Shown here: in pieces, positions 1 through 38,529 of the stretch
How the letters are laid out: each line of letters starts with the position of its first letter
Position numbering within the stretch: position 1 is the stretch's first letter
NCBI GenBank assembly: GCA_022711115.1
Contig: JAKLFP010000002.1
Coordinates: forward strand, 143,674 to 207,673
Source: Candidatus Omnitrophota bacterium
Lineage (GTDB): Bacteria; Omnitrophota; Omnitrophia; Omnitrophales; Aquincolibacteriaceae
Length of the DNA: 64,000 nucleotides
Reading direction: 5' to 3'
Translations under genes and position numbers: made by a program
The notes under the pieces: model-generated
Databases searched by the model: none
Seen by the model: only the letters and a program-made list of their open reading frames with translations
What the model was told of the DNA's origin: nothing

Positions 1-1153
1 GCGCCCCTGCAAGAAGTCCCTTAACAACCTGTATCACTTTATGGACCTCTCGATGAGTCATTTCAAAGAAAATAGGCAAAGACAAAGTATCCGCATAATA
101 GTGCTCAGCCTCAGGACAATTGCTGCGGTAGCCTAAACGGCGATAATAAGGCTGCGTGTAAATGGGGATGTAATGGACCTGGCTACCCACTCCTAAGTTC
201 TGAAGTTTGCTCATGAACTCGGTCCGCGACAATCCTATTTGTTTAAAATCAATCCGAAGAGGATAGAGATGATAAACATTTATTCGGTCTTTCAGGTCAA
301 GAGGTGTTTGGACGCCAGAAAGTTTTTTAAATGCCTGGTCATAAAGAGCGGCAATTTCGCGGCGACGTTTCACAAAAGCGTCCAGCTTTTGCAACTGTGA
401 AATCCCAAGTGCTGCTTGAATATCCGTAAGGCGATAATTAAATCCGAGATCTGTCATGGCGTAATACCAAGGTCCCATACGCCGGGACAATGCCGGGGTT
501 CGAACCACTCCATGGCTTCGCAGCGATAAAAGCTTCTCATACAGTTTTCTTGAATTGGTGGTAATCGCGCCACCCTCGCCTGTCGTAATATGTTTGACCG
601 GATGAAAACTGAACACCGCCATATCCGAATGCGCACAGGATCCTACCTTAAACCACGAACCGTTGCTCTTATAACGCGCCCCAAGCGCATGGCAAGCGTC
701 TTCCACAACAAAGAGATCACGCTTTTGCGCTAGTTTGTGGATCGAGGGCATATCGCAAGGCAATCCTCCAAAATGAACAGGAAAAATAGCTTTTATGCGT
801 GACCGCGCGATGAGTTTCTGAAGACACAAAACAGAGATATTGGCAGTGGCATAGTCGACGTCGCAAAATACGGGTTTTGCTCCGACATACAGAGCAGCGT
901 TCGAGGTAGCTAAAAAAGAAATCGGCGTTGTGAGGACTTCATCTCCTTTTTTGAGACCAAGAGCTAAGGCCGCCAGATGTAAAGCAGCAGTTCCAGTTGA
1001 AACAGCCACCGCATATCGAGCGCCACATTGATGAGCCAACTTCGCTTCAAAACCATCGATAAGAGGCCCTTGCGTGATCTTCGGAGAGCGGAGAGCCCGG
1101 ACCACTGAATCAATATCGTCTTGATCGATCGATTGTTTACCGTAGGGTATCAT
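1..1153 (-). CDS. DegT/DnrJ/EryC1/StrS-family PLP-dependent sugar aminotransferase; the C-terminal end runs off the window edge. It is absent from the ORF track because it has no bounding stop on that side
   Basis: I translated the minus strand from the ATG at 1153 (MIPYGKQSIDQDDIDSVVRALRSPKITQGPLIDGFEAKLA...). The reading frame stays open to position 1. It carries the family PLP-lysine motif (FSFHPVKHITTGEGG) and typical DegT blocks (YYAMTDLGFNYRLTDIQAALG). The start overlaps the stop of the adjacent dehydratase. Confidence 0.85.
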   Translation of the reverse strand, partial: MIPYGKQSIDQDDIDSVVRALRSPKITQGPLIDGFEAKLAHQCGARYAVAVSTGTAALHLAALALGLKKGDEVLTTPISFLATSNAALYVGAKPVFCDVDYATANISVLCLQKLIARSRIKAIFPVHFGGLPCDMPSIHKLAQKRDLFVVEDACHALGARYKSNGSWFKVGSCAHSDMAVFSFHPVKHITTGEGGAITTNSRKLYEKLLSLRSHGVVRTPALSRRMGPWYYAMTDLGFNYRLTDIQAALGISQLQKLDAFVKRRREIAALYDQAFKKLSGVQTPLDLKDRINVYHLYPLRIDFKQIGLSRTEFMSKLQNLGVGSQVHYIPIYTQPYYRRLGYRSNCPEAEHYYADTLSLPIFFEMTHREVHKVIQVVKGLLAGA

Positions 1154-2156
1154 TGCCAGAGTATTCGCTTTTAAGCCAGGCTTGAAGTTGTTCCTTGGTC
1201 ATCCATTCCTGGTTGTTTTCACTGGAATAGCTGAAACCATCCGCGCATTTTTTTCCGTTGCCGATTCGCTGAGTGCATTTGTGCCAATTATAAATATCCG
1301 GCAAAATCTTGAAAAAAGTGCGATACTCATAGGTGTGGCGAGCATCGTCTTCACCAATCATAAATTCATGGAGTTTTTCTCCAGGACGAATCCCGATGAT
1401 TTTCTGCTTTGCCTTGGACGAAATAGCTTTGGCAATATCCACCACCTTCATCGATGGGATTTTAGGCACATAAATTTCGCCGCCCACGCAATCCTCCAAC
1501 GCAAACCAGACGAGCTCAACCGCTTGTTCCAATGTGATCATAAAGCGGGTCATCCGCTTGTCCGTGATGGGAATTTCACCGGTCTTAGCTCTTTCATTAA
1601 AAAACGGAATGACGGAACCGCGACTGCCCATGACATTCCCGTAGCGAACCACCGCAAAACGGATGTCATGCGCACCGGCATAAGCATTCCCGGCAACAAA
1701 TAATTTATCCGAGCATAGCTTGGTGGCACCGTAAAGATTAATCGGGTTACAGGCCTTGTCCGTACTGAGGGCAATGACACGCTTCACTTTTTGAGCAATG
1801 GCCGCCTCGATGACATTCATCGCGCCATGAATATTGGTCTTGATAGCTTCAAAAGGATTGTATTCGGCCGTCGGAACGATCTTGGTTGCCGCAGCGTGGA
1901 TCACATAATCCACTTCCTGAAACGCCAAATTGAGTCGTTCACGTTCACGAACGTCGCCTATGAAATAACGAAGTACTCCTTTTTTATCATGAGGAGCAAA
2001 TTCCTTCTGCATATCCCACTGCTTCATTTCATCCCGGGACAGCACGATCAGTTTTTTGGGAGAAAACTTTTCAAGCGTCATCCGGACAAATTTCTTCCCG
2101 AAAGAACCCGTTCCGCCCGTAATAAGAATTGATTTGTTATCCAATAGATTTTTCAT
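1137..2156 (-). CDS. pseB: UDP-N-acetylglucosamine 4,6-dehydratase, short soluble PseB/FlaA1/CapD-like SDR
   Basis: 339 aa. Rossmann motif ITGGTGSFGK, catalytic YGATKLCSDK (YxxxK), and the PseB-like block PITDKRMTRFMITLEQAVELV. It is immediately followed by a DegT aminotransferase, the classic dehydratase/aminotransferase pair. Confidence 0.75.
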   Translation of the reverse strand: MKNLLDNKSILITGGTGSFGKKFVRMTLEKFSPKKLIVLSRDEMKQWDMQKEFAPHDKKGVLRYFIGDVRERERLNLAFQEVDYVIHAAATKIVPTAEYNPFEAIKTNIHGAMNVIEAAIAQKVKRVIALSTDKACNPINLYGATKLCSDKLFVAGNAYAGAHDIRFAVVRYGNVMGSRGSVIPFFNERAKTGEIPITDKRMTRFMITLEQAVELVWFALEDCVGGEIYVPKIPSMKVVDIAKAISSKAKQKIIGIRPGEKLHEFMIGEDDARHTYEYRTFFKILPDIYNWHKCTQRIGNGKKCADGFSYSSENNQEWMTKEQLQAWLKSEYSGNDTLR

Positions 2157-2173
2157 AGATTTCCTCTGAAAGG

Positions 2174-2416
2174 TTATCCATCAATATCCTTATGAACCCA
2201 ATGCCTTGCTTTGTTATAGGCTTTCCCGACTTTATCTTCAAGCTCAGGCGATAAAACACGCAAAAGCTCTTTGCCCATGATCCGATATTGTTTCCCGACT
2301 TTGGCCGCGCGGATCAATCCCTTTTTGATCATGCGCGTCATGGTGCTGGAACTGATTTTGAGTAATTTCTGGGATTCTTTTGGGGTATAAACTGCATTCT
2401 CTTCAATCGCTGGCAT
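2174..2416 (-). CDS. Small HTH_17 / excisionase-family DNA-binding protein
   Basis: 80 aa. The core LLKISSSTMTRMIKKGLIRAAKVGKQYRIMGKELL matches the Xis/MerR-like HTH_17 signature (...G.I.A.KVG.QYRI). ATG verified at 2416. Confidence 0.6.
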   Translation of the reverse strand: MPAIEENAVYTPKESQKLLKISSSTMTRMIKKGLIRAAKVGKQYRIMGKELLRVLSPELEDKVGKAYNKARHWVHKDIDG

Positions 2417-2540
2417 AGCATCTCCTCATCAAGTGAACTTATAAAGAAGTATAGCTATCAATTCATATTATGTCAATAGATGTCATTGATAGTCATTGGA
2501 CGCCAAAAACCACTGACAATATTGCTCTAACCTATTGAAT
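2417..2540. promoter_or_regulatory. AT-rich intergenic region with imperfect palindromic/direct repeats (tgtcaatagatgtcattgatagtcattgg). Candidate promoter/operator upstream of the HTH gene
   Basis: Repeated gtcattg units and a tcaatag...tcattga near-palindrome sit directly 5' of the minus-strand HTH gene. Confidence 0.25.
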
Positions 2541-4903
2541 TACAATGGGTTAAATCTTAAAGACAAAACATACCGTCCTGCCCTTGAAATCCAAATCCCC
2601 TGAAAAAGCCCATGGGCATAGAGGATGGATTGTTTTTGTCCGTTGAGCGTTGCATGCCAACCCGGATATAAGGTATTTGAGATGACAAAAAATCCCGGAC
2701 GATCCGTTTCGATTTCCCATTGCTGCCGAGAAGTCTCATTGATCGTGCGGTGAAACGTGGCACGCGCGTCGGTGTTATCCGGAGAAGAGAAATTTTTTAT
2801 TTTTTGCAACTCGGATTCTTCAAAAAGAACGGCTCGCCGCGGGTCAAATCCGGAAGCCATGAATTGATTCTTGAGCTCCTCCCATCCCTTGACGATTTGA
2901 CATTGCGTCACAAAGAAAGCACGGGCATGATCTCCCTGATTTCGATAAAGGTAATAAGCCTTTGCAGGGTCGGAGAACTCAAGAGAAAGGTCGGGATGAT
3001 GGAAAGGCTGTGTGGATACCACAAATGCGACATCCAGGAAATTCAAAAGATTCAGATGATTCAGAACAAACTGCGGCGAAGGATTAACGATGAAATTGGA
3101 ATCGTTGACATTACCAAGTTGGCCGATGGTTTCATAATACCTCGAAAAAACAAACGGCGAATAAGCCCCGATTTCTTCAATGCCATACAGCATATTGGCA
3201 TTCGGCGTCAGAGGCAGTAACTCTCCGGTCTGGCGAAACCCATAAATCCTGCCCGGGGTTTGCTCTAATGCTTTGGCCAATTTCTCAGCAAATACGGCCT
3301 TGGATTTTAAATGCTCATAGCTATCAAAATCGGTTTTGATATCAAAAAAAGAAAACGCATAGAGATCCAGAAAGAGAAATACGAAGCCAGCAACTAGCCA
3401 ATACTGAATTCGTATCTTAAGACGCCGCAAACCCAATGTAAAAAGAACCCCGATCCCTAGAATGAAATAACTCCATAAGCTCCATGAATTTTTAAAAGAA
3501 AAAACGGGATAAAGGGTACGCAAATAGCCCTGCATCTTTTCTTGATACATCAACAAACTATGCGGATGGCCTGGCTTTTGGAAAAGAAAATGACGAATGA
3601 ACCAATCCCCTGCTTGCTGCATCAGGGCGGGATATTGTTGAACAACACAAAGTACCAACGCAACAAGCAGACAGAAACCGACGATCAGCATAAAAAAAGC
3701 CTTGGAAACTTTTGTTCGGAGCATTTGTGAATCTTGATCATCGCTTGAAAGCCAGGCTTTTTGAAAACCGATCCCGGATAGCATCGAAAGCGAGAAACAA
3801 ACAAAAATTAAAAATTTGGCGGGTGTCCGAAATGAATAAAAATGCGTCAACTTGATCAAACCGATATAAAGCGGACTCCATTGTCCCAATGCCAAAAGAA
3901 GTGTTAAAACCGCAATACAAACCCATAGTCGGAAAAGCTTTTGTTCATCTTTGGTTTTCGATGAAAAAAAAGCAAAGAAAATCAAAAAGAGCGAGAAAAT
4001 CCCCATATAAAAGCTGTTGCCGCGAAAAAGAATTTGAGTCAACGGAAAGATCAGGGTTGCCAAAGCCCCCGGAAACAAGGAGCCCACATAGGCATAACCT
4101 TCAACCGCCAGAGCACGATTGGATCTCATCGCCAAATCAAAGGTTAAAAGAAGTTGCGGCAAGGAAATAAGTACGGCTATGCCCAGAGTGCAAAAAATGC
4201 CTCCGACTCCAATGATTGTCTTGCGTATGCCTTGAACCTCATCATCAGGAAATAAAAAAAGGCGCAGGAATCCATAAAGCACAAAAACAAATAATGCCAA
4301 AATCGCGATCTGAAGATAACCCGCCAAAAGGACCAAGGAACCTAAAAAGCCAAGGGCCACAACATACAAGAACTTGCGCGTTTTGTAGAAACGTTCAAAA
4401 ATAAAAAGCAGCCAAGGAAACCACGTCAGCGCTTTTAACGAAGTCACATTGTAGTAAGCACCGCCATAAGAGGTCCCGAATACGTAAATAAAGGCAACCA
4501 TAAAAGCCGCGAGGGGAATCAATTTCATCTGCCTCGCGTAGGCATAAGTCCCCCACCCCACAAGCAGATAATGGACAGCATGCATATACGTATAAGCCCA
4601 CTGAATCGGAAGGAGTCCGTAGAGAAGCAAATTCGGGAGGTAAAAAATACCGATCTGACCCTCCGCCGCAATCGGGAATCCGCATTGAATCAACGGTGTC
4701 CAAAACGGCAGAACGCCCCGGTGCAGGGATTGCCATAAAAGATCGGCCCAGGGATAATGCTGTTCCAGATGATCCGCGATCAAAGCGCCGGATCTCGCTA
4801 GAAAAAGTTCGGGATAAAAGATGACGAGAGAAACCAGAACGGCAAAAAAAGCGAGTTTATCTTGAAAACTTTCATCATCGAAACGTTGCTGGGTTAGCGC
4901 CAT
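2540..4903 (-). CDS. Polytopic membrane protein, YfhO-like / putative GT-C-fold glycosyltransferase
   Basis: 787 aa. More than 12 hydrophobic helices fill the N-terminal two thirds, followed by a soluble C-terminal domain. The architecture resembles YfhO-type polyprenyl-P-sugar-dependent transferases. Its stop and the upstream gene's start share a TGATG overlap at 4903. Confidence 0.45.
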   Translation of the reverse strand: MALTQQRFDDESFQDKLAFFAVLVSLVIFYPELFLARSGALIADHLEQHYPWADLLWQSLHRGVLPFWTPLIQCGFPIAAEGQIGIFYLPNLLLYGLLPIQWAYTYMHAVHYLLVGWGTYAYARQMKLIPLAAFMVAFIYVFGTSYGGAYYNVTSLKALTWFPWLLFIFERFYKTRKFLYVVALGFLGSLVLLAGYLQIAILALFVFVLYGFLRLFLFPDDEVQGIRKTIIGVGGIFCTLGIAVLISLPQLLLTFDLAMRSNRALAVEGYAYVGSLFPGALATLIFPLTQILFRGNSFYMGIFSLFLIFFAFFSSKTKDEQKLFRLWVCIAVLTLLLALGQWSPLYIGLIKLTHFYSFRTPAKFLIFVCFSLSMLSGIGFQKAWLSSDDQDSQMLRTKVSKAFFMLIVGFCLLVALVLCVVQQYPALMQQAGDWFIRHFLFQKPGHPHSLLMYQEKMQGYLRTLYPVFSFKNSWSLWSYFILGIGVLFTLGLRRLKIRIQYWLVAGFVFLFLDLYAFSFFDIKTDFDSYEHLKSKAVFAEKLAKALEQTPGRIYGFRQTGELLPLTPNANMLYGIEEIGAYSPFVFSRYYETIGQLGNVNDSNFIVNPSPQFVLNHLNLLNFLDVAFVVSTQPFHHPDLSLEFSDPAKAYYLYRNQGDHARAFFVTQCQIVKGWEELKNQFMASGFDPRRAVLFEESELQKIKNFSSPDNTDARATFHRTINETSRQQWEIETDRPGFFVISNTLYPGWHATLNGQKQSILYAHGLFQGIWISRAGRYVLSLRFNPL

Positions 4904-6672
4904 CAGGCAAAACTCTTTTCAATTTTTTCTAAAACAGCATGATTCTTTTTCAAATCATAAGTGCCCCGATAGTAACTCCGATCCGGGTACGCGGCAAAAA
5001 GCTCTTTATTGCGTTCGCCAAGGTCATGGGCATATAGAATACGCCCATCGAGGAACGGGCTGTTCCGGACAGAATCTTCTTCTGCAATGATAAGACGATT
5101 GCCCAGATGTCCATGGATGAAAACAATGGTAGGCTCGTGGATGGTTTGTTCCACAAGATCAAAGAGCGCCCGCCTCTGGCGGCTTGCCTCTTCAGTAAAG
5201 GCCGCATGTTTTGCAAAAAGGACGCCCGAGGTAGCCAATGAGGCCATGACAAAAACAAGAAGAAATTTCCGGATCCGTAAACCGCCATCACGCCATCGGA
5301 TTACAATCCAATCCGCTACCGCAATACAAAGAAAGGGCATGCCTTCCCACCAATAGCGCGGTCCCCACTGGTTTCCGCCCCAGGAATAATAGAGGAAATA
5401 CGCAAAAGCAAGAAAGACCATGCTAAGTCGAAAAAGATTTTTCAAAACATCCTCTCGAATTCGCTTCATCCATCCAGGCATCAAAAACAAATAACATCCC
5501 ACAAAGGCCGGCGCAAACCAGTCCATAAGATAAAAAATGCGTCCTAACAGAAAAACAAGCGCATCGATGGGCGTGTAGTGACCTTTTTTAAATCCAAGCC
5601 GCTCCCAAGACTGATGATACTTTGTAGGAGGCTTCAGCATTTTTCCGGTCACGAGATAGTTTTGAGCAAGGATTAAAATCATAAACATGCCTATGCTCCC
5701 GATGACGATCCAGTCGCCTTTCCGAAGCTGAGGACGTTTCAATGAAAAAGGCATCCATCCGAAGCGACCATGACTTGGAAATTGTTTTTTAAAGCCTTTC
5801 CATTCAAAAAAGATAGGTAAAAAATGATACAGGAGAAATGGCCCGGCGATCGCGGCCATAGTCAGGTATCGGGTCATCAGACCATAACCAACCGCAATCC
5901 CGCAAACAATTGCCCACCCCACGGGATCTTTTCCTTCCGCATAGGCCTCCCGCCATCTCAAGAACGAATAAAGAAAGATCGCGATCATCAGAAGACAAGT
6001 TCCATGAGAAAAATAGGATGCCGCCGTAAACATAAAAAAAGGACTCAAACCCATGATCGTCAGTCCGAGAATCGCGGAGGACCGACCAAAAAGTTTTTTG
6101 CCTGAAAGATATAAAAAGAAAACAGCCACAGAAGACATAACGGGATTGAGCCAGTCCACGATATTAAACTGTAGCCCCAAAATCCATATCAAGGGCCAAC
6201 CCGGAGGATAAACACTGAACCATTTCCCGTCGCGCATCCCGACATTTACCACTTTGAAAAAATCGGCAAGCGGGGGTTTCTCGACATACAATTTTCCTTT
6301 TCGAAGACACTCCGCCAAGAAATAACAGGAATGTTCATCCGCCGAACTGAGAAAGGAATGGAGAATGTGCCGGTTCACCCAAAGCAGGATAAAAACCAAT
6401 CCGGCAAGAGCCAGAATACCGATAGGGATGCTAAGATTTTTTGTATGACTTCGGCTGAAGTCCAATATCCCCTTCCGCACTAAAAAATCAGGCAGAAGAT
6501 AAGAAGCAAGAAGCGATATCAGAAGCGTCACGCCTAAAAGTGAAACCGCCTCAGGGGTTAAAAATATTCCATGCCCGGCAATGGTCGGCACGCGAGATGC
6601 CCATAGGGACGCCAAAGAAAAAAATGCACCCCAAGAAAAAATCACTGCCACTTTAAAATATTTTTTGTCCAT
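4903..6672 (-). CDS. ArnT/PMT-family (GT39/GT83-like) GT-C membrane glycosyltransferase
   Basis: 589 aa polytopic membrane protein. The loop motif SADEHSCYFLAECLRKGKLYVEKPPL matches the ArnT/PMT DE..Y...A.EML...YFEKPPL signature. Confidence 0.6.
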   Translation of the reverse strand: MDKKYFKVAVIFSWGAFFSLASLWASRVPTIAGHGIFLTPEAVSLLGVTLLISLLASYLLPDFLVRKGILDFSRSHTKNLSIPIGILALAGLVFILLWVNRHILHSFLSSADEHSCYFLAECLRKGKLYVEKPPLADFFKVVNVGMRDGKWFSVYPPGWPLIWILGLQFNIVDWLNPVMSSVAVFFLYLSGKKLFGRSSAILGLTIMGLSPFFMFTAASYFSHGTCLLMIAIFLYSFLRWREAYAEGKDPVGWAIVCGIAVGYGLMTRYLTMAAIAGPFLLYHFLPIFFEWKGFKKQFPSHGRFGWMPFSLKRPQLRKGDWIVIGSIGMFMILILAQNYLVTGKMLKPPTKYHQSWERLGFKKGHYTPIDALVFLLGRIFYLMDWFAPAFVGCYLFLMPGWMKRIREDVLKNLFRLSMVFLAFAYFLYYSWGGNQWGPRYWWEGMPFLCIAVADWIVIRWRDGGLRIRKFLLVFVMASLATSGVLFAKHAAFTEEASRQRRALFDLVEQTIHEPTIVFIHGHLGNRLIIAEEDSVRNSPFLDGRILYAHDLGERNKELFAAYPDRSYYRGTYDLKKNHAVLEKIEKSFA

Positions 6673-6687
6673 CGACGCGTCACACCT

Positions 6688-7761
6688 CTAGAAAGACTTT
6701 TGAATGACTTCCGCTGCCAACTGATGCCCCTTGGCGGTCCAATGCCAATCCCCTTTGATGTAGTATGCCTCAAGGCCGTCTTTGGCAACCGCTTCATTGA
6801 ACGCGGGCTTCAAATTGATCAGTTTCACTTTTTCCCTTTCCGCGAATCGAAGAAGCGAACGTTCCAGGGAAGTTTTTCGAGTGCTTTCCGCCCAATCTTG
6901 CGGCGGCATCAACACCAGCACTGGAACAGCTCCGTCTTTTCGAACCTCAACGATCAATTCATGCAAAACAACTCGGCCGATGATCCATTCCTCGCTAGAA
7001 TCGGGATCGATCAAACGTATATTTTTTGCAAGTTTTATGAGCGGCTTTCTCGCCAAACGGTATAACACGCTTTGATCCAGTAATTTTTGTACCATGTTCT
7101 GCTCAAGAAGCGGTGGAAATTGATTCGAATTTAACGAAAATGGCGGCGGCACAGGCACATTATGGAGCTTCAGCTTGCCATTTTCCGTGAGCGTGAAATA
7201 GGGCTTCACATGTCCTGAATCCGTGAAGGAACGCGTGCATCGCCAAAAATCTTCCGGGAAAATACCGATCATGACAATATCGGGATGATAAGGCCGGGCG
7301 ATCTCCTTATAGCTTAAATAGATCTGATCCACACCATATCCCGGAATACCCAAATTCAAGACTTCCCGGTTCTTGTCCGCAGCTTCAAGCAGAGCCGGAA
7401 ATGTCGCGTCATCCGGTACGCCAAACCCAAATACGAAACTATCTCCGAGCACAACCGATCGGATGACACCACTTGGTTTTTCCCGAGCATATTCGCGAAG
7501 CCCGCGAAACCCTGCGGCATTGGTGTGAATGCTCACTTCCGGGAAGTTCGGGTTTGTAAGAACCGCCGTCTTATTTTTCTGAGAGTACCAACCAAGCACC
7601 GAATGATGTTCAATCCAGATATTTTCAGGGACCGAAACCCAACTCATCCGCGTTTTTTCTTGGAACTTTATTCGATCGAGGCCCACGAAACGCAAGACGA
7701 TTTCCGCTATGGACAACGCCAATAACAATGAAAGGATTGCTAAAATTACGTTCTTTTTCAT
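6688..7761 (-). CDS. SGNH/GDSL-family hydrolase (AlgX/AlgJ-like glycan O-acyl transferase or esterase), secreted. The start was moved to the ATG at 7761 (MKKNVILAIL...)
   Basis: Signal/anchor helix. GDS block LGDSFVFGFGV and C-terminal DWHWTAKGH (D-x-x-H of the SGNH triad). Paralog of 8580-9719. Confidence 0.55.
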   Translation of the reverse strand: MKKNVILAILSLLLALSIAEIVLRFVGLDRIKFQEKTRMSWVSVPENIWIEHHSVLGWYSQKNKTAVLTNPNFPEVSIHTNAAGFRGLREYAREKPSGVIRSVVLGDSFVFGFGVPDDATFPALLEAADKNREVLNLGIPGYGVDQIYLSYKEIARPYHPDIVMIGIFPEDFWRCTRSFTDSGHVKPYFTLTENGKLKLHNVPVPPPFSLNSNQFPPLLEQNMVQKLLDQSVLYRLARKPLIKLAKNIRLIDPDSSEEWIIGRVVLHELIVEVRKDGAVPVLVLMPPQDWAESTRKTSLERSLLRFAEREKVKLINLKPAFNEAVAKDGLEAYYIKGDWHWTAKGHQLAAEVIQKSF

Positions 7762-7824
7762 AGCCTTATAGATCACTTTTGGGAGTTGATAGCTCAAATT
7801 GAAACATAGGGTAACAGAAATCCC

Positions 7825-8622: not shown

Positions 8623-9719
8623 GTCTGATCCAACTCCGTTTCCCTATTGTGTCCCGCCAGATACTGCTGGATCATATCCGCTGCTAAAACATGCCCTTTC
8701 GGGTTCCAGTGCCAATCGAATTTGATAAAATTATCCAATGCTCCCTGTTTCGGATTGGGTAACTTAAATACCGGCATCAGATTGATGACATCCACTCCTT
8801 CACGTTCCGCAAAACGCAGGTAGGCATTGGTTATCGGTTCGCGACGATTCAGAAGCGTTTCATCCGCAGACGGTAAAATCAAAAAAACAGGCCGTGCCCC
8901 ATCTCTTCGAATGGCCTCAACAAGTTGAAGAAGAATCGCTTTTCCGATCCGCCACTCATCTGAGTTTTCCGGATCACCCCAGCCAAAATTTCCCGCAAAG
9001 TTCAAAATAAGCCTTCGAAGCTTTCGGTACAACATGCTTCTGTTGAGTATTTTTTCAAAGATATTTTCCTCAAAGAGTGCCGGGAATTGGCCTTTTTGCA
9101 TGGAAAAAGGCGGCGGGACAGGCACATTATGAAGTGCCAATTTCCCTTGTTTATTAAGTGAAAAATAGGGTTTTGCATGCCCCGAATCGGCAAAGGCACG
9201 CGTCGAACGCCAAAAATCCATAATAAAAATGCCAATCAGAACAATATCCGGTTTATAGTGATACGCGATCGTCTGATAGCAGAGACTGATTTGGTCATAG
9301 CCATACCCGGGCACACCAAAATTCATCACCTCAAGACTGTTGTCTCTAGCTTCCAGAACGGCAGCAAAAGTCTCGTGATCCTGGACGCCAAACCCGAATA
9401 CTAAACTGTCTCCAAGCGCAGCAATGCGAGTGATTCCTTTTGGTTTTTCAAGTAAATATTCTCGCATCCCGCGCGCACCTGCAGAGTTTGTGTGGACATA
9501 AACCGTTGGAAAGCTAGAGTCTTCCAAAACTGCCGTCTTGTTTTTTTGAGGATACCAACCGAGAATCGGATGATATTCGACCCAAATATGCTCGGGAACT
9601 TGGATCCAATTTTTCTTGGCCTGGTGAGTCGGCTCCGGATAAGCGACACGCAATCCCAGTTCCGCAACGGCAAAGGCAATCAAAGTTGACAGAATTGCTA
9701 AAAGAATGTTTTTTCGCAT
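8580..9719 (-). CDS. SGNH/GDSL-family hydrolase, paralog of 6688-7761
   Basis: N-terminal anchor MRKNILLAILSTLIAFAV, then LGDSLVFGFGV and DWHWNPKGH. Colinear similarity to the other SGNH gene runs the full length. Its 3' end overlaps the convergent GT2 gene by about 43 bp. Confidence 0.55.
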   Translation of the reverse strand: MRKNILLAILSTLIAFAVAELGLRVAYPEPTHQAKKNWIQVPEHIWVEYHPILGWYPQKNKTAVLEDSSFPTVYVHTNSAGARGMREYLLEKPKGITRIAALGDSLVFGFGVQDHETFAAVLEARDNSLEVMNFGVPGYGYDQISLCYQTIAYHYKPDIVLIGIFIMDFWRSTRAFADSGHAKPYFSLNKQGKLALHNVPVPPPFSMQKGQFPALFEENIFEKILNRSMLYRKLRRLILNFAGNFGWGDPENSDEWRIGKAILLQLVEAIRRDGARPVFLILPSADETLLNRREPITNAYLRFAEREGVDVINLMPVFKLPNPKQGALDNFIKFDWHWNPKGHVLAADMIQQYLAGHNRETELDQTQRLARNGLSEAGT

Positions 9720-9809
9720 AAAACCTCAAAAGGATTCGCAATCATCTGAACTGCCCTAAGCTCCTTTTCCTGCGCCGCATCACAACGAAACAGACAAAAT
9801 CAATTTGAT

Positions 9810-11483
9810 TTAATCACGGAGCTTGTAGACAGCGATCGGATAACCGTTCCGTTCTCGCGCAGCGATATCCTTCCAGAGAAACGGACCGCCCGTCAACGAT
9901 TGTGCGTCATAAATGCGCGTGGAGATCTTATTTCTATACGGAGAAAAACTCACTAGCCGAGTCGCATGGTTCTGTAATTCCGAAAAGAATAAATCCCCTG
10001 CAGCATACAATGGTTCAACAACGAGCACATACTCCACGTTCTTTTGTTTTAAAACACGCATATCAAAAGGAATTTGCGGCTCCCCAAACAAAAAACGCGG
10101 TGTCTGAGGATCCGGGCTCAAGAAATATTGTTCATACGATGGCTCATGCCCCTTAGCAAGCAGTGCGTCGACACGGCGGATTTTGGATCGTGCCTGCAGC
10201 TGTTTTTGAGCAAGAGCTTTCTTTTCCTCAAGCTGCTTTGTGGAAAAAGCCAACCGCGGCATAAAAAAATCATGGCTCATCGCGATCCGGCTTCCGTTTG
10301 GAATATTATCTTCCACCCACTCCCTCACAAGCGTCCGCATATCCTTGGCCGTCATGAGTTGGTCCCAAGCAACAATTTTTATCAACGGCGGCAAAACAAC
10401 CACGAGGATCAAAAAAACAAACAAGGGCCTTGACCAAATCTTAAGCTTTAAAAGAACTTGTGAGGCCGCAAAAAGCATCAACGGTATAAGTGGAAGTACA
10501 TACCGGTCATAAGATTGGCCCCAATGACAAAGCACAAGATAATAACCCACCACAAAAACCGAAACAGCTTCTTGTCTGGGATCCCTCACAAAAAATGATC
10601 CTATCATCCCTAGCAATGAAATCAGGAGCAACGGCCATCCGAGAGCTCCGCCAAGTGAATAAGTCAAATGATGAAACCATGGAACCCCGCTATTCGCCTG
10701 GGACTGTTCCGTAATTTCCTTTAAAAAAAACGAGGAATCAAAGATGGAATAGGGATTCAGCGCAAGGAACACGAAAACAGCAGCCATACTTGCCAACGCC
10801 CAGCAAGGCAGCCATTTTCTCCATGGGATGGTTCGAAAACATATCCAGGCATAGGGCATCGCAAGAAAAATCCCGTTATATTTCACAGCCGCTGATAATC
10901 CAATCAAAACACCGACGAGCACATGCCGTTTCCACGATACGGGATTTTGGGGAATCTTGAAAATCACGCTAAATCCGAGCAAAAACGTCAAGACAAGCGG
11001 AATGTCGGCATAAATGTAATGGGAATCGCGGGCGTGCAAAAAATTGATTGCAAGAAAAAAGGCCGCCCAAAGACCCGCTTCGACATTCCAAAAAAGTTTG
11101 ACAAGACGATAGAGGATATACACAGAAATCGTACCGGCAAAAACGCCGAATATGATTCGAGCGATAAGGTAGAACAATGTTGGATCAAAATAGAAAAGCT
11201 GCTCGAAATCACGGACAGTATGAAAAAATCCGATGCCTTTGCCCAAAATGAAAAAAAGACCGTAGCAGACAAAAAGTAAATAGCTTACAAGAGGCGGGAT
11301 CTTGAAAAAGTGCGGGTTCAAATCCCCCGATCCATAGGCGAGCGCATGGTTCACCACAATCGGTTCATCCGCGTGATAAAGAAAAGGCAGGCCGAAATGG
11401 ACAGCCCAAATTCTTAAGGCCAATGCCAGGGTCAGAATAGCAAAAAGAAGGAACGTTTCACGGGATAGGCGAACAACTCTCAT
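9810..11483 (-). CDS. ArnT/PMT-family GT-C membrane glycosyltransferase. The ATG start is at 11483; the track start at 11519 is TTG
   Basis: Polytopic. The first loop has HADEP...A......G......FKIPPL (the GT-C DE/KPPL motif pattern). The ATG overlaps the stop of the upstream GT2 gene (ATGA). Confidence 0.55.
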   Translation of the reverse strand: MRVVRLSRETFLLFAILTLALALRIWAVHFGLPFLYHADEPIVVNHALAYGSGDLNPHFFKIPPLVSYLLFVCYGLFFILGKGIGFFHTVRDFEQLFYFDPTLFYLIARIIFGVFAGTISVYILYRLVKLFWNVEAGLWAAFFLAINFLHARDSHYIYADIPLVLTFLLGFSVIFKIPQNPVSWKRHVLVGVLIGLSAAVKYNGIFLAMPYAWICFRTIPWRKWLPCWALASMAAVFVFLALNPYSIFDSSFFLKEITEQSQANSGVPWFHHLTYSLGGALGWPLLLISLLGMIGSFFVRDPRQEAVSVFVVGYYLVLCHWGQSYDRYVLPLIPLMLFAASQVLLKLKIWSRPLFVFLILVVVLPPLIKIVAWDQLMTAKDMRTLVREWVEDNIPNGSRIAMSHDFFMPRLAFSTKQLEEKKALAQKQLQARSKIRRVDALLAKGHEPSYEQYFLSPDPQTPRFLFGEPQIPFDMRVLKQKNVEYVLVVEPLYAAGDLFFSELQNHATRLVSFSPYRNKISTRIYDAQSLTGGPFLWKDIAARERNGYPIAVYKLRD

Positions 11484-12190
11484 TGGGAATGAAGGCGGCG
11501 GATCTTCAGGACATCCCAAAACATCAGCAACGGATCCCGAAGAACCTGCACCCGGCTTTGCGCGGAATTCCGCCAGATCACCGGTAGTTCGAGTATCCGG
11601 TAGCCGTGTTTTTGTGCTAAATAAAGGATCTCCACATCAAAACTAAAACCATCCAGTTTCTGCTCGCTGAAAAGCTTATGCGCAACATCCCCCCGAAAGC
11701 CCTTGAACCCGCACTGGGAATCATGGATACCTTTGAAGGCCCAAGCCCGCGCGATCAGATTAAAGGTTTTTCCCATCAGCTCGCGCAGAAAGTTCTGATG
11801 GACCTCGACCTTGGAATCCGGCATGGCCCGCGAACCGATCACAACATCGCAATCATGCTTAAGGCGTTCCAGAAATCGGCTTACCTCTTCGATGGGCGTG
11901 GAAAGATCCGCGTCCGTGAACAGGATATATTGCCCGGCAGAAACAAGCACTCCCTGGCGGACCGCATGGCCTTTGCCTCGATTTTGGGAAGTGATCAGAA
12001 TGCGGTGATTGAAGTTCCTCAATTTTTCCTGGGCGATCGCCACGGTACCATCCTGGCTGCCATCATCAGAAACGATGATTTCGGAATCAAATTCTTGCCG
12101 TTTAAGAAAACCAAGAATTGTATTCAAGGTTTGGGGCAAACGCTTTTCTTCATTGAAAGCCGGAATCACCACAGACAAAAAAGGAGCCAT
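11480..12190 (-). CDS. GT2 undecaprenyl-phosphate glycosyltransferase (ArnC/GtrB/Dpm1-like)
   Basis: LSVVIPAFNEE...IIVSDDGSQDGT...FTDADLSTP...DSQCGFKGF are the canonical ArnC/GtrB motifs. About 236 aa. Confidence 0.75.
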   Translation of the reverse strand: MAPFLSVVIPAFNEEKRLPQTLNTILGFLKRQEFDSEIIVSDDGSQDGTVAIAQEKLRNFNHRILITSQNRGKGHAVRQGVLVSAGQYILFTDADLSTPIEEVSRFLERLKHDCDVVIGSRAMPDSKVEVHQNFLRELMGKTFNLIARAWAFKGIHDSQCGFKGFRGDVAHKLFSEQKLDGFSFDVEILYLAQKHGYRILELPVIWRNSAQSRVQVLRDPLLMFWDVLKIRRLHSQ

Positions 12191-12192
12191 CG

Positions 12193-13143
12193 CTATTTTT
12201 TCCCCAACGCTTCTTTAAAATACTCCACGGTGAGTTTGAGCCCATCTTCCAAAGCAACCTTCGGGTCCCAAGACAAAAGTTTTTCTGCCTTTCGAACATC
12301 GGGTTGCCGGACCTTAGGATCGTCCACGGGCAATGGTTTATGAATGATCCGGCTGGAACTATTTGTGATTTTAATAATTTTTTGAGCCAGCTCCAGCATG
12401 GAGATTTCGTCGGGGTTTCCGATATTTACCGGTTCATTGACTTTGGAAAGTAACAGGCTCTCAATCCCGTTTACCATATCATCGATATAACAAAGACTTC
12501 GGGTCTGCTGCCCGTCGCCGAAAACCGTGAGCGGTTCCCCCGTCAAGGCCTGGGAAAGAAACGCCGGAATGGCACGCCCATCCCGGAGGCGCATCCTGGG
12601 GCCGTAGGTATTAAAAATGCGGATGATCTTGGTATCCATTTTATGGGTGCGGTGATAGGCCATGGTTAATGCTTCGGCATAGCGTTTGGCTTCATCATAA
12701 ACACCTCGCGGACCGATCGGATTGACATTCCCCCAATATTCTTCCGGCTGAGGATGAACCAACGGATCGCCATAGACTTCCGATGTGGAGGCTAATAGAA
12801 AGACCGCTTTTTTTTCTTTCGCCAAGCCGAGAGCATTATGGGTTCCCAAAGCTCCGACCTTTAAGGTCTGTATGGGAAACTGAAGATAATCAAGAGGACT
12901 GGCGGGAGACGCGAAGTGAAGCACATAGTGGACAGGACCCGGAATCCGCAAATGCAGGCTGATATCATGGCGGATCAATTCAAAAGCCGGATGCCCCATC
13001 AGTGGTTCAATGTTTTTTTCATTCCCGGTAAGGAAGTTATCGACCACGATGACGCGAAATCCGCGATCGATGAATCTACCGCATAAATGAGACCCCAGAA
13101 ATCCCCCGCCTCCGGTGATCAAACAGGTTTTCATGGAAGTCAT
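12193..13143 (-). CDS. UDP-glucuronate decarboxylase (UXS / ArnA C-terminal-domain-like SDR)
   Basis: [21 protein letters not shown] (YxxxK), and the UXS-family block [18 protein letters not shown]. Its start overlaps the rmlD stop (ATGA). Confidence 0.75.
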
Positions 13144-14117
13144 CCGGCCGTGTTTTCCTTTTCCGCAGCCTGGGCTTTGGATCTTTCATCCTGAGCGGCC
13201 AGTTCCCGCTTCAGGCGGGGTAGAAACAAACGAGTGGCGTCTTGCCATGACGGCAGTTCAAGCGCAAGTTCATGCTTTAATTTTTCGAGTGAAAGCACGG
13301 AATTCAAGGGACGAGGAGCCGGGCGTTTTAATTGAGTACTGGAGATATCCTCAATCTTGACCGAACCTAAATTAGATTCATTCAAAATAAAACGTGCAAA
13401 ATCCGCCCAATTCACGGTTCCCATATTTCCAAGATGAAAGATCGTAGGTTTTTGGTCGAATACAAACTCTCGTTTTTTGAGCAGTACGGACTTCATAGCT
13501 TCCGCGACATCCCACGAATAAGTGGGACGACCTACTTGATCATTGACTACGGTCATTTTCTTGGCGTCCGCGGCCTGACGCAGGATGGCTTTGGGAAAAC
13601 AGCGCCCCCAAACCCCGAAAAGCCAGGTAATGCGGAAAATCACTGCTTGTTTGGCCTGCGCCAAAATATATTGTTCGGCCTGAAGCTTTGTGTTGCCGTA
13701 GAAACTGATCGGATTGGGTGTATCCTCTTCGGTATATTCCCCCTTTTTTTGGCCGTCAAAAACATAATCCGTACTGTAAAAAATAAGCGCCGCATTCACA
13801 TCATTGCAGGCATCCACCACATTCTTCGTCGCACCGACATTTTGTTCGATGGCCTCCTCATGATGGTCTTCACAATAGTCGACATCGGTCAGCGCCGCTG
13901 CATGAATCACCAGATTCGGCTGATGGCTTACTATCGCATCCCGCGTCTTCCGGGCATGCGTCAGATCACAGATATCATACGGAACCGTGAGATGCGTCAC
14001 GGGTCTCTTGTCCAGTCCCACAACCTCAAAATCGTCCTTTAGAACAGCGGCAAGATCGGATCCGAGCATACCGCCCGCACCTGTGATGAGGATCTTAAAA
14101 GTCTTCTGGTTTGGCAT
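13140..14117 (-). CDS. rfbD: dTDP-4-dehydrorhamnose reductase
   Basis: [23 protein letters not shown]. Length and colinearity match RmlD. A C-terminal charged tail is present. Confidence 0.85.
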
Positions 14118-14118
14118 C

Positions 14119-15096
14119 TTATTTAACCGTATATTTATCTTTTTTAAGAGGCTGCCACCAACCGGGATTTTTCCTGTACCAATCTGCGGTCACAGCCAGC
14201 CCTTTTTTGAAATTCCATTCGGGTTTGAACCCGAGTTTTCGAAGTTTATTAAAATTGAGCGCATAGCGCAGATCATGCCCCGGACGGTCCTTCACATATC
14301 GAATCATCTCGGGTCCTTTTTTGAAATGCTTGAGAACCTTATGTGTCATCTCCAAATTGCTCATTTCCTGATGCGAACCGACATTGTAAATTTCTCCTGA
14401 CTTCCCTTTCTCAAGCACCAGAAGCACCGCCCGGCACGCATCCTCGACAAAGATCCAATCCCGGCGGTTTTGCCCATTCCCATAAAGCGGCACCGTTTTA
14501 TTCTCCAAAAGATTCGTCACAAAAAGCGGTATGACTTTCTCGGGGAACTGATAGGGTCCGTAATTGTTCGTACAGCGAATGATCATGGCGGGATGCCGGA
14601 AAGTCTCCTGAAATGACCGCACCAAGAGATCGGCACCTGCCTTTGAGGCTGAATAAGGGCTATTGGGTAAAAGATGCGCACACTCATCCACAAAACCTTT
14701 TTTGATCGAGCCATAAACCTCGTCGGTGGACATATGAACAAAACGTTTGATCCCGCAGGCTAAAGAAGCCTCGAGCAAGGCCGCAGTCCCCATGATATTT
14801 GTTTTGAGGAAATCATCCGCGCTTTCGATGGAACGGTCCACATGAGTTTCTGCGGCAAAATGTACCACCGCCGAAACCTTTTTCATCAGCTTTAAGACAA
14901 GTTTCTTATCCGTGATGTCCCCTTTGACAAATTGATAGCGGGAAGATCCTTTGAGATCTTGAAGATTGGCCGGATTACCGGAGTAACTCAGCTTATCAAG
15001 ATTCAGAACGCTCCAACCAGGACGATGGGCAAAAATATAATGTATAAAATTCGAGCCAATAAAACCGCAGCCACCTGTCACAAGAATTTGCTTCAC
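14119..15096 (-). CDS. rfbB: dTDP-glucose 4,6-dehydratase. GTG start overlapping the rmlA stop (GTGA)
   Basis: VTGGCGFIGSNF, STDEVYG, YSASKAGAD, and RmlB-type C-terminal blocks. Confidence 0.9.
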   Translation of the reverse strand: MKQILVTGGCGFIGSNFIHYIFAHRPGWSVLNLDKLSYSGNPANLQDLKGSSRYQFVKGDITDKKLVLKLMKKVSAVVHFAAETHVDRSIESADDFLKTNIMGTAALLEASLACGIKRFVHMSTDEVYGSIKKGFVDECAHLLPNSPYSASKAGADLLVRSFQETFRHPAMIIRCTNNYGPYQFPEKVIPLFVTNLLENKTVPLYGNGQNRRDWIFVEDACRAVLLVLEKGKSGEIYNVGSHQEMSNLEMTHKVLKHFKKGPEMIRYVKDRPGHDLRYALNFNKLRKLGFKPEWNFKKGLAVTADWYRKNPGWWQPLKKDKYTVK

Positions 15097-15821
15097 TTTC
15101 GTTGTCTCCCATGTTTTTCAACCAGAGTCCCCGCTTTAAAAAGAGATTCGAATGTTCCGGCATCCGTCCAAAATCCCTTCAAAATGTCATATTCAAGTTT
15201 CCCTTGCTTTAAGTACCAATTATTGACATCCGTGATCTCAAGCTCCCCCCGTTTGGAGGGTTTTAAAGTTTTGATGAAATTAAAAACGGTCGCATCATAC
15301 ATATAGATGCCAATAACCGCATAAGAACTTTTTGGGTTTTTGGGTTTCTCGATGATCTCGGTGATCTTCCCCCACTTTAAAGTGGGCACGCCGAACCTTT
15401 CGGGATCCGGAACTTTTTTCAAAAGAAGCCGTGCACCGCTCTTCTGTTTCTCAAAATGCTGCACGTGAGTCGTAATATCTTCCTGAATGATATTATCACC
15501 CAAGATCACAACAATCTTATCGCCTGCCGCAAAGTGTTTTGCAAGACCAAGGGCATGAGCAATCCCGCCCTCACCTTCCTGATAAGTGTAATTGATATGG
15601 TGAAGCCCGAATTGCGCACCGTTCCCGAGCAGTCTCAGAAAATCTCCAGCTGAATTGCCTCCCGTAACGATTAAAATATCCTTAATGCCCGCCTGCACCA
15701 GCGTTTCAATCGGATAATAGATCATGGGCTTATCGTAAACCGGAAGCAAATGCTTATTGGTGACTTTCGTCAGGGGATGCAACCGACTGCCGAGCCCCCC
15801 CGCAAGGATAACACCTTTCAT
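15093..15821 (-). CDS. rfbA: Glucose-1-phosphate thymidylyltransferase (short form)
   Basis: MKGVILAGGLGSRLHPLT (GGxGxRLxPxT) and a nucleotidyltransferase fold of about 240 aa. Sits with rmlB and rmlD. Confidence 0.8.
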   Translation of the reverse strand: MKGVILAGGLGSRLHPLTKVTNKHLLPVYDKPMIYYPIETLVQAGIKDILIVTGGNSAGDFLRLLGNGAQFGLHHINYTYQEGEGGIAHALGLAKHFAAGDKIVVILGDNIIQEDITTHVQHFEKQKSGARLLLKKVPDPERFGVPTLKWGKITEIIEKPKNPKSSYAVIGIYMYDATVFNFIKTLKPSKRGELEITDVNNWYLKQGKLEYDILKGFWTDAGTFESLFKAGTLVEKHGRQRK

Positions 15822-15839
15822 AGAAATGGACCTCCTGTG

Positions 15840-17138
15840 TTAAGCAGATGGACGACCGATACTTGTGTAGTTGAAACCGTGTTTTTTCATTTCAGGAGCG
15901 GAAAACATATTGCGTCCGTCGAAAAAGAATTTCCCAGTCATCTGACGCTTGAGTCGGGACCACTCCAGATTTAAAAACTCACTCCATTCCGTAAGCACAG
16001 CAACCGCGTGGGCGCCCTTGGCCGCATCGTAGGCATTGGCTGCCAATGTCACATTTTTAAATATTAACTTTGCTTTTTCCATCGCTTGAGGATCATAAGC
16101 CTGGATACGCACTCCCTCCCGCTGAAGCATTTGAATGATCGGGATCGAAGGCGCCGAGCGCATGTCATCGGTATCGGGCTTGAAAGCCAGCCCAAGCACC
16201 GCAATGGTTTTTCCTTTAAGCGAGCGCAAGGTGTTCTGTATTTTCTGCACAAAGTACTTCGCCTGAAATTCATTAATACGCAACACGCCGGCCAAAAGCT
16301 CGAAACGAGCGCCTAACTGTTCTGAAATATGCAGAAAGGCACTCAGATCCTTGGGAAAACAAGATCCCCCAAATCCGATACCAGCCTTGAGAAACTGCGC
16401 GCCGATACGGGGGTCGAGCCCCATACCAAGCACCACTTTTTCAACATCCGCACCCACGGCATCGCAGATCCGCGACAAGCCGTTTGCAAAAGAAATTTTT
16501 AGAGCAAGAAAGGAATTCGAAGCGTGTTTAATCAGTTCGGCACTTTTGATGTCCGTCACAATCATCGGAGCTTTCAAAGGACCGTAGAGTTCCCGGAAAA
16601 TTTTTTCCGAACGTTCATTGGCCACTCCGATGACGATCCTGTCCGGCTTGAGAAAATCATGGATCGCAGACCCCTCTCTTAAGAATTCCGGATTCGAAGC
16701 CACATCAAAATGAACGCCTTTTTTGATGTTTCGCTTGATGGTCCGGAAAACCCACTCGCCGGTTTCGACCGGCACGGTGCTTTTTTCAACGATCAGACAA
16801 TACTTGCGCAGATTTTTAGCAATTTGACGCGCCACTTTATCCACGAAAGTAAGATCGGCTTCCCCGTTGGCTCTGGACGGGGTATGAACACAAATAAAAA
16901 GGACTTCACACCGATTGACAACCTTCGCAATGTCCCCGACGAAAGAAAGCCGCTTCGCTTCCACATTGGTCAGCACCATCTCTGACAAACCGGGCTCATA
17001 AAAAGGCACTTTCCCCGTTTTCAGTGTGCGGATCTTATTTTCATCATGATCCACACACGTCACGGTATGTCCCAGATGCGCCAGACAAGCACCCGTCACT
17101 AAACCGACATAACCTGAGCCGATGATTCCTATTTTCAT
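15840..17138 (-). CDS. ugd: UDP-glucose 6-dehydrogenase
   Basis: N-terminal GSGYVGLVTG and the catalytic Cys block GFGGSCFPKD. Full-length colinearity of about 430 aa. Confidence 0.9.
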   Translation of the reverse strand: MKIGIIGSGYVGLVTGACLAHLGHTVTCVDHDENKIRTLKTGKVPFYEPGLSEMVLTNVEAKRLSFVGDIAKVVNRCEVLFICVHTPSRANGEADLTFVDKVARQIAKNLRKYCLIVEKSTVPVETGEWVFRTIKRNIKKGVHFDVASNPEFLREGSAIHDFLKPDRIVIGVANERSEKIFRELYGPLKAPMIVTDIKSAELIKHASNSFLALKISFANGLSRICDAVGADVEKVVLGMGLDPRIGAQFLKAGIGFGGSCFPKDLSAFLHISEQLGARFELLAGVLRINEFQAKYFVQKIQNTLRSLKGKTIAVLGLAFKPDTDDMRSAPSIPIIQMLQREGVRIQAYDPQAMEKAKLIFKNVTLAANAYDAAKGAHAVAVLTEWSEFLNLEWSRLKRQMTGKFFFDGRNMFSAPEMKKHGFNYTSIGRPSA

Positions 17139-26722: not shown

Positions 26723-26786
26723 AGTTTATTTTAAATTAATGAAGATTAAAAAACATCACAAACCGCCCGATATGGAAATGATCGAT

Positions 26787-38525: not shown

Positions 38526-38529
38526 GATT

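Follow-up and report, generated by a model that had tools for sequence, protein, structure and literature searches.

Gene content and organization of the locus

Positions 2540 to approximately 19562 of a 64,000-nt stretch of contig JAKLFP010000002.1 from Candidatus Omnitrophota bacterium (GCA_022711115.1; the whole stretch is referred to below as the window) contain a cluster of glycosylation genes. Its most likely function is the transfer of sugars to a lipid carrier in the membrane and their subsequent attachment, on the extracytoplasmic side, to the cell envelope. As judged from the genes, the sugars handled are probably xylose and a 6-deoxyhexose. Read from 19562 towards 2540, the gene order is LptD, Ugd, RmlA-like, RmlB, RmlD-like, UXS (UDP-xylose synthase), GT2_236, GTC557, SGNHb, GT2_265, SGNHa, GTC589, and X787, and all of these genes lie on the minus strand except GT2_265, which lies on the plus strand. 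Intergenic distances within the LptD–GTC557 segment are −40 to +24 nt, and those flanking GTC589 are −1 and +15 nt. This near-contiguity is broken only by a 90-nt gap at 9719–9810 and by the region around GT2_265, which is divergent from SGNHa with 63 nt between the two genes. The genes are tightly packed, and no unassigned open reading frames (ORFs) were found between LptD and X787. Thus, the enzyme classes are present, their packing is operon-like, and their order is conserved across the phylum. The gene classes named in a preliminary description of this DNA were all recovered at or near their reported positions, whereas two SGNH/GDSL paralogs, the LptD gene upstream of ugd, and a small HTH_17 gene were absent from that description.

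Polyprenyl-phosphate sugar synthases and GT-C membrane proteins

Two genes of glycosyltransferase family 2 (GT2) encode Dpm1/ArnC-like proteins, which agrees with the earlier assignment of two polyprenyl-phosphate sugar synthases. GT2_236 (11480..12190, minus strand) is a putative Dpm1/PpgS/ArnC-like synthase that matches Glycos_transf_2 (104 bits), aligns over its full length with the PpgS model, and has DPMS (5mlz, 1.9e-17), ArnC, and GtrB as its best PDB matches; it contains no hydrophobic segments and thus lacks membrane helices. GT2_265 (7825..8622, plus strand) matches the NCBIfam models PgfS, ArnC, AglJ, and PpgS and, in the PDB, DPMS (5mlz), ArnC, and GtrB. The ArnC model scores 50–63 bits on the GT2 enzymes versus a cut-off of 529. 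As judged from the PDB matches, a Dpm1/GtrB-type synthase, as required in a Gtr-type system, is encoded twice. The stop codon of GT2_236 overlaps the called start of GTC557 by 4 nt, suggesting translational coupling.

Four membrane proteins are all predicted to be of the GT-C type on the basis of Pfam matches, family-level matches, or predicted folds, in agreement with the periplasmic-type transferases previously placed at 2540, 4903, 9810, and 28173. Two of them exceed the threshold (26.1 bits) of PMT_2 (PF13231, GT39/GT83-like). GTC557 (9810..11483, minus strand; 30.8 bits) belongs to a family whose members carry PF02366 and PF13231 and has an invariant motif, YHADEP (D39, E40), in an N-terminal loop. 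Its AlphaFold2 (AF2) model (pLDDT 87) matched STT3 (1e-8), ALG9/12, and ArnT (7e-7) in Foldseek, with TM values of 0.51–0.54, as well as AglB, PglB, and Pmt4; the TM value for ArnT was ∼0.52, and STT3 and ALG9/12 matched equally well or better. GTC589 (4903..6672, minus strand; 37.1 bits) similarly contains an invariant N-terminal loop motif, SADEHSCYF (D112, E113), and its homologs are labelled ‘glycosyltransferase family 39’ of Omnitrophota in the source records. A direct relationship between GTC589 and GTC557 was considered, but they show no BLASTP similarity and an hhalign probability of only 46%, indicating that they are not recent paralogs.

X787 (2540..4903, minus strand; 787 aa) appears, from family and fold evidence, to be a divergent YfhO-like GT-C protein with a C-terminal beta-rich domain. 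It has no Pfam match of its own, even at E<=10, but 13 of its 32 homologs (39–59% identity) match YfhO (PF09586), with a best E of 6.4e-14. The top 20 Foldseek matches of its AF2 model (pLDDT 88) are all GT-C proteins (AftD at 7e-6, STT3, AftA, PglB, Emb, and Pmt), and D44 and E81 are invariant in an N-terminal loop; invariant acidic loop residues are expected of GT-C enzymes. The GT-C-fold transferase of a Gtr-type system is thus represented by the two PMT_2 proteins and by the predicted folds of GTC557 and X787. The fourth protein, Y528 (28134..29720, plus strand; 528 aa), is encoded outside the locus, beyond unrelated genes, and is a divergent, PMT_2-like protein with at least nine hydrophobic segments. 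No Pfam match was obtained for Y528 itself, even at E<=10; its assignment is at the family level, with PMT_2 matched by 20 of 38 homologs (best E 6.3e-10) and the Y528 family aligned with the GTC557 family by hhalign (91% probability, E 9e-7). Between rpoN and the Y528 gene, three small ORFs (26039–28054, minus strand; 227, 197, and 231 aa) encode proteins with one hydrophobic segment each, N-terminal in two, for which no Pfam or NCBIfam family match was found.

Sequence searches of the PDB with the GT-C proteins and family profiles yielded nothing useful. The possibility that the membrane proteins are O-antigen ligases or polymerases was rejected: no such Pfam matches were obtained, and the significant fold matches are all to GT-C proteins, so that these proteins group with PMT_2 and YfhO and with the STT3, ArnT, and ALG folds.

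Sugar-nucleotide enzymes

The presence of Ugd and a decarboxylase, as noted earlier, was substantiated by domain and profile matches. Ugd (UDP-glucose 6-dehydrogenase; 15840..17138, minus strand; 432 aa) contains three UDPG_MGDP_dh domains and scores 472 bits (cut-off 190) with the NCBIfam nucleotide-sugar dehydrogenase model and 529 bits with the TuaD model. The decarboxylase (12193..13143, minus strand; 316 aa) had been left undecided between the UXS and ArnA-C types. By sequence comparison, it is plainly assigned as a true UDP-xylose synthase (UDP-glucuronate decarboxylase): it aligns with human UXS1 over its full length (348 bits, E 4e-103, 52% identity over 309 columns) versus only 77 bits with ArnA-C, and its score with the NCBIfam ArnA model is 80 bits (cut-off 777). 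The motifs [10 protein letters not shown], YDExKR, and RIFNTxGPRM are common to the window protein and human UXS1 in the alignment, the first two being catalytic motifs, so that the protein combines these with full-length similarity to a characterized UXS. In the UXS family, the 4-keto intermediate is reduced and not released for transamination.

Between Ugd and UXS lie genes for an RmlA-like short sugar-1-phosphate nucleotidylyltransferase (15093..15821, minus strand; 242 aa; NTP_transferase, 199 bits), RmlB (dTDP-glucose 4,6-dehydratase; 14119..15096, minus strand; TIGR01181, 439 bits versus a cut-off of 365), and an RmlD-family 4-ketoreductase (13140..14117, minus strand; 325 aa; TIGR01214, 254 bits versus a cut-off of 224), the last of which has solved RmlD structures as its best PDB matches (149 bits). 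The earlier observation that rmlA, rmlB, and rmlD are present without rmlC holds, with the qualification that the RmlA-like copy is short and remains below the equivalog cut-offs, scoring approximately 250 bits with the RmlA models (RfbA, 251 versus 361) against cut-offs of 320–361. The RmlB and RmlD genes abut and leave no space for a further gene. A tblastn search with an Escherichia coli RfbC query found no RmlC in the window or in related loci L001–L033 (see below), a negative that is only moderately strong. The deoxyhexose would be L-rhamnose only if RmlC is encoded elsewhere, and otherwise a 6-deoxy-D-hexose; a simple 6-deoxy-D-hexose is allowed by the parallel Gmd-plus-reductase cassettes described in the next subsection.

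Conservation of the locus in related genomes

In total, 36 related loci (designated by L numbers) were compared by tblastn with the window proteins. Three of these are the window's own contigs and 30 are from GTDB species representatives, all of which are metagenome-assembled genomes and, where a taxon is named, members of Omnitrophota; called-gene tables were used for three more distant homologs. The loci are mutually related, and the counts given here are not independent.

Two recurrent modules were recognized. Module 1 consists of Ugd, an optional 6-deoxyhexose cassette, UXS, GT2_236, and GTC557, and module 2 consists of the divergently transcribed GT2_265, SGNHa, and GTC589, usually followed by X787 within a few kilobases. 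The divergent position of GT2_265 recurs in most of the related loci. UXS was located no more than two genes upstream of the GT2_236–GTC557 pair in all 13 loci with sufficient upstream sequence. In the window and in seven further loci, Ugd and UXS are separated by the RmlA–RmlB–RmlD cassette, and in two more distant loci (L016, 2789–4727; L020, 2607–4582) it is replaced by genes for Gmd (GDP-mannose 4,6-dehydratase) and another short-chain dehydrogenase/reductase (SDR), which looks like a swap between dTDP-based and GDP-based 6-deoxyhexose supply. L023 and L029 contain only LptD–Ugd–UXS–GT2–GTC557–GTC589–X787, lacking the deoxyhexose genes, the second GT2, and the SGNH genes; UXS is therefore the sole sugar-nucleotide enzyme that is always tied to GT2_236. 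The second GT2 gene is present in 10 of the 10 loci with a deoxyhexose cassette and absent from both loci without one.

Because the same arrangement is kept across many Omnitrophota genomes, the earlier statement that multiple GT-C enzymes in one locus are unusual was overstated; precedents for several GT-C genes together include rgtA–D of Rhizobium and the emb/aft genes of mycobacteria.

Additional genes were also observed at module 2 in individual loci. In L016, a gene for a DUF2079 membrane protein (8038–9693; 204 bits) lies between the GT2_265 and GTC589 orthologs, the position held by SGNHa in the window. In L035, genes for a 2-oxoglutarate-Fe(II) oxygenase and a TylF-type methyltransferase (10470–12283) adjoin the GT2_265 ortholog, which hints at further sugar tailoring in that lineage.

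LptD, SGNH proteins, and candidate flippases

The gene at 17163..19562 (minus strand) encodes an LptD-like outer-membrane lipopolysaccharide (LPS) assembly protein of 799 aa, which matches PF04453 (LptD) and, in the PDB, LptD 7omm (E 1.5e-8), shows weak OstA/LptD_N matches, and has a signal peptide and a C-terminal Phe. It lies directly upstream of ugd and is probably co-transcribed with it; the two genes are adjacent in this order in the window and also in L023, L029, and L036. Immediately upstream of lptD, and overlapping it, are two tandem GGDEF diguanylate cyclase genes (19559–22386, minus strand), one of which also encodes a GAF domain, and the GGDEF–GGDEF–LptD order recurs in L023. Elsewhere in the window, genes for a PfkB-family kinase, a cytidylyltransferase-like protein, and a SIS-domain protein occur in a row, with a TMP synthase gene interleaved (37611–40249, minus strand), and resemble the ADP-heptose (HldE/GmhA-like) pathway for LPS core.

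SGNHa (6688..7761, minus strand; 357 aa from the called start) and SGNHb (8580..9719, minus strand; 379 aa) are putative membrane-anchored SGNH/GDSL proteins that match Lipase_GDSL_2 (40.7 and 36.4 bits, respectively, versus 32.9). The two paralogs are 52% identical, and each has an N-terminal hydrophobic anchor, an N-terminal GDS motif, and a terminal D-W-H-W, i.e. Asp-x-His in place of the usual Asp-x-x-His. SGNHb, which also has a weak AlgX match, is probably a periplasmic hydrolase or acyltransferase-like protein. As the D-W-H-W region gives the weak match to the AlgX acetyltransferase, the two proteins may act as acyltransferases and not as esterases.

A PF03706 (LPG_synthase_TM, flippase-like) membrane protein is encoded at 44401–45375 (minus strand), 27 kb from the locus. 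In L034, a gene of this family (952–1893) is located exactly between the GT2_236 and GTC557 orthologs, and the family may flip the lipid-linked donor. The window protein is 23% identical to the L034 protein, and as a candidate for the missing flippase it stays a weak lead.

The adjoining pseudaminic acid operon

Beyond X787 there is a 383-nt gap holding a small HTH_17 gene (2174..2416, minus strand; PF12728), followed by pseB and pseC. PseB (UDP-GlcNAc 4,6-dehydratase (inverting); 1137..2156, minus strand) scores 517 bits with TIGR03589 (cut-off 408), and PseC (2..1153, minus strand), the last codons of which lie past the window edge, scores 491 bits with TIGR03588 (cut-off 423.5). In the 10 kb past the left edge are, in order, genes for a PseF-like CMP-sugar synthetase with a CTP_transf_3 domain, a 351-aa protein without a Pfam match, a methyltransferase, WbqC+GNAT, a NeuB/PseI-type NeuB+SAF protein, Wzx, and Capsule_synth. 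PseB and PseC equivalogs are thus accompanied by a downstream cytidylyltransferase and a NeuB-type synthase, and they form the start of an independent and complete operon for pseudaminic acid, which continues past the left edge of the window and has no part in the glycosylation locus. This operon, headed by the HTH_17 gene, is set apart from the GT-C genes by the gap, that small gene, and a promoter-like site at 2448–2476 (TTGACA-17-TATACT, 11 of 12 positions). In the promoter and terminator scan, the overall site counts were no higher than in shuffled sequence, and this site was the only one usefully placed. In this operon, the WbqC+GNAT protein is a 746-aa fusion and is followed by the Wzx-type flippase and the Capsule_synth (KpsC/KpsS-like) gene (L003 coordinates 14632–16872 and 19408–21020, past the left edge of the window).

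In the preliminary description, the PseB-like dehydratase was correctly paired with a DegT aminotransferase, but the latter was also counted in a set (Ugd, decarboxylase, DegT, ArnC-like, and ArnT-like) that mirrors the 4-amino-4-deoxy-L-arabinose (Ara4N) pathway of lipid A. This second assignment fails because the aminotransferase is PseC, a member of the pse operon, and the decarboxylase is a UXS; on the ArnB model, the aminotransferase scores 281 bits against a cut-off of 631. Of the two products envisaged there, a xylose-type sugar is favoured by the similarity scores of the decarboxylase, whereas a non-formylated amino-pentose is left without a dedicated transaminase once the DegT gene is recognized as pseC. 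The reported lack of a formyltransferase and deformylase was upheld, as scans of the larger ORFs of the window and of the 10-kb left flank revealed no gene for a formyltransferase or polysaccharide deacetylase. Neither ArnA-N nor ArnD is encoded beside the locus, so that an ordinary Arn operon was not found.

Proposed pathway and alternative explanations

We favour, with a probability of approximately 0.55, a reading in which the locus encodes several glycosylation systems that depend on a lipid carrier and act outside the cytoplasm, resembling in general kind the Gtr, Arn, and CsbB/YfhO systems. That such machinery is encoded, with sugar-nucleotide enzymes, two polyprenyl-phosphate sugar synthases, and three GT-C transferases in a single conserved operon, is firm; the sugars and the acceptor are inferred. 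In module 1, Ugd and UXS would produce UDP-xylose, the soluble Dpm1-like GT2_236 would transfer the pentose to polyprenyl phosphate, and, after flipping, GTC557 would pass the xylose to an envelope acceptor on the periplasmic side. In module 2, GT2_265 would load a second sugar, probably a 6-deoxyhexose supplied by the RmlA-like, RmlB, and RmlD-like proteins, and GTC589 and/or the YfhO-like X787 would transfer it. The two membrane-anchored SGNH proteins may add an acyl group to the donor or product, or remove one from it. LPS (lipid A, core, or O-chain) is the most likely acceptor, given that the LptD gene is found immediately before ugd in four lineages; the heptose-pathway-like genes add a hint in the same direction.

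A more specific form of this proposal can be put forward only tentatively: a UDP-xylose-fed, Arn-like route, not previously described, in which polyprenyl-phosphate xylopyranose is the donor and a PMT_2-type GT-C enzyme co-transcribed with lptD xylosylates LPS in the periplasm, with the second synthase making a lipid-linked 6-deoxyhexose. Full-text literature searches, in which most subscription journals were not covered, revealed no polyprenyl-phosphate donor carrying xylopyranose or rhamnose, no link between UXS and an ArnT-like enzyme, and no description of such Omnitrophota loci.

Several observations weigh against the favoured reading. The GT2 enzymes fall far below every NCBIfam equivalog cut-off, and their sugar specificity is therefore not assignable from sequence. 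The fold matches of GTC557 cannot be used to tell lipid A, glycan, and protein acceptors apart, and no GtrA-, SMR-, or MATE-type flippase gene is present in the locus, the distant PF03706 protein being a weak candidate. L013 carries a GTC557-like gene (40% identical) alone, without UXS or GT2 upstream, and the retention of GTC589 and X787 in L023 and L029 without GT2_265 indicates that GT2_265 and GTC589 are not strictly paired. The related loci are not phylogenetically independent, and L023 and L029 may represent one lineage. In addition, the literature searched contains no precedent for a lipid-linked donor of xylopyranose, which lowers the prior for such a pathway and raises its interest.

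The same lipid-carrier machinery could instead act on proteins, through PMT-like O-glycosylation of secreted or surface proteins such as the giant proteins of the phylum, an explanation that we regard as unlikely. Both PMT_2 proteins belong to a family that includes protein O-mannosyltransferases, with members carrying PF02366 (PMT), and the fold matches to STT3, PglB, AglB, and Pmt4 are at least as strong as that to ArnT. The window itself contains a giant ORF of 3716 aa (46833–57983, minus strand), in which a response-regulator receiver domain around residue 1800 is the sole Pfam match at E<=1e-5. On the other hand, the locus has no conserved gene for an acceptor protein, the position of LptD directly upstream of ugd is conserved in the four lineages, and characterized YfhO-type enzymes act on glycopolymers, not proteins (PMC5836110). 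An IS200-like Y1 transposase gene (45936–46592) adjoins the 3716-aa ORF.

It is also improbable, in our estimation, that the region is a mixed glycan island in which ordinary cytoplasmic Leloir glycosyltransferases, encoded elsewhere, use UDP-xylose and the dTDP-deoxyhexose for an O-antigen or capsule, the GT2 enzymes load glucose, N-acetylglucosamine, or mannose for the GT-C enzymes, and the adjacency of the genes reflects shared regulation only. This explanation would accommodate the sub-threshold equivalog scores of the GT2 enzymes and the lack of a published lipid-linked xylopyranose or rhamnose donor, and characterized Dpm1/GtrB-type enzymes do take hexoses or N-acetylhexosamines (PMC11127046, PMC5836110). 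However, UXS–GT2_236–GTC557 is retained without exception as the core of the 13 assessable loci, including those that lack all other sugar genes, and no Leloir-type glycan-elongating glycosyltransferase, Wzy, or initiating transferase was seen among the genes from LptD to X787.

An incomplete Ara4N-like pathway, placing a non-formylated amino-pentose on lipid A, is very improbable: Ugd, a decarboxylase, a DegT-family gene, ArnC-like GT2s, and ArnT-like folds do all occur within 17 kb, and the ArnB model still gives 281 bits on the aminotransferase, but this protein passes the PseC cut-off and fails that of ArnB, its gene is part of a complete pse operon that is preceded by a gap and a promoter-like site of its own, the decarboxylase is UXS-type (348 versus 77 bits), and Ugd–UXS–GT2–GT-C is kept in related loci with no aminotransferase in the module.

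Comparison with known glycosylation systems

The locus is a system of a known type in a new form, with the UXS-fed module adjoining lptD as its distinctive feature, rather than a defective version of the aminoarabinose pathway. The closest in general kind are the three-component Gtr and CsbB/YfhO systems (GtrA/GtrB/Gtr* in Shigella and Salmonella; CsbB/GtcA/YfhO in Bacillus and Listeria), which carry out post-assembly modification of an envelope glycopolymer (PMC11127046, PMC5836110, PMC7389260). These systems and the window locus share a polyprenyl-phosphate sugar synthase of the GT2 type and a GT-C transferase, with a YfhO-like member also present here. The window locus differs in lacking a GtrA/GtcA-type flippase, in having Ugd/UXS and Rml-like genes built into the operon, and in containing two synthases, three GT-C proteins, and SGNH proteins; X787 is, moreover, too divergent for the Pfam model.

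As in the Arn pathway, Ugd supplies UDP-glucuronic acid (UDP-GlcA) that is decarboxylated by an SDR, and the pentose would be attached to undecaprenyl phosphate by a Dpm1-like GT2 and then transferred in the periplasm by a GT-C enzyme, ArnT being among the significant fold matches of GTC557. The decarboxylase is, however, of the UXS and not the ArnA-C type, the DegT gene is pseC with no dedicated transaminase in its place, and no formyltransferase, deformylase, or ArnE/F was found here, so that four defining Arn parts are absent. The expected sugar is neutral xylose in contrast to cationic Ara4N, and a role in polymyxin-type charge masking is therefore not expected.

In Citrobacter youngae, a polyprenyl-phosphoribose synthase, a MATE flippase, and a GT-C enzyme of family GT136 add ribofuranose or xylofuranose to the O antigen, and the donor is made from phosphoribosyl pyrophosphate via a phosphoribosyltransferase/phosphatase and an epimerase (PMC11127046). 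Extracytoplasmic addition of a pentose to LPS by a GT-C enzyme from a polyprenyl-phosphate donor is thus common to that system and the proposed one. The route proposed here would instead run from UDP-GlcA via UXS to a Dpm1-like GT2, implying xylopyranose, and no MATE flippase was seen in the locus. In Rhizobium, RgtE and RgtA/B/C/D place galacturonic acid on lipid A and core, with one Dpm1-like synthase serving several ArnT-like GT-C enzymes. The Rgt pathway starts from Ugd-derived UDP-GlcA and uses a UDP-GlcA 4-epimerase, so that the uronic acid is kept. The Ugd-derived start and the use of multiple GT-C genes for one purpose are shared with the window locus, whereas the SDR of the latter is a decarboxylase.

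If module 1 works as proposed, a neutral pentopyranose would join the short list of sugars carried on polyprenyl monophosphate, which includes glucose, N-acetylglucosamine, mannose, Ara4N, galacturonic acid, galactosamine, arabinofuranose, ribofuranose, and xylofuranose, and the Ugd–decarboxylase–GT2–GT-C logic of the Arn pathway would also exist in a non-amino, UXS-based form. For genome annotation, the close proximity of Ugd, SDR, DegT, ArnC-like, and ArnT-like genes does not per se indicate lipid A modification of the polymyxin-resistance type. Omnitrophota is a widespread uncultivated phylum with very small cells, and the pathway proposed here would provide a first concrete hypothesis on how the envelope of these organisms is decorated.

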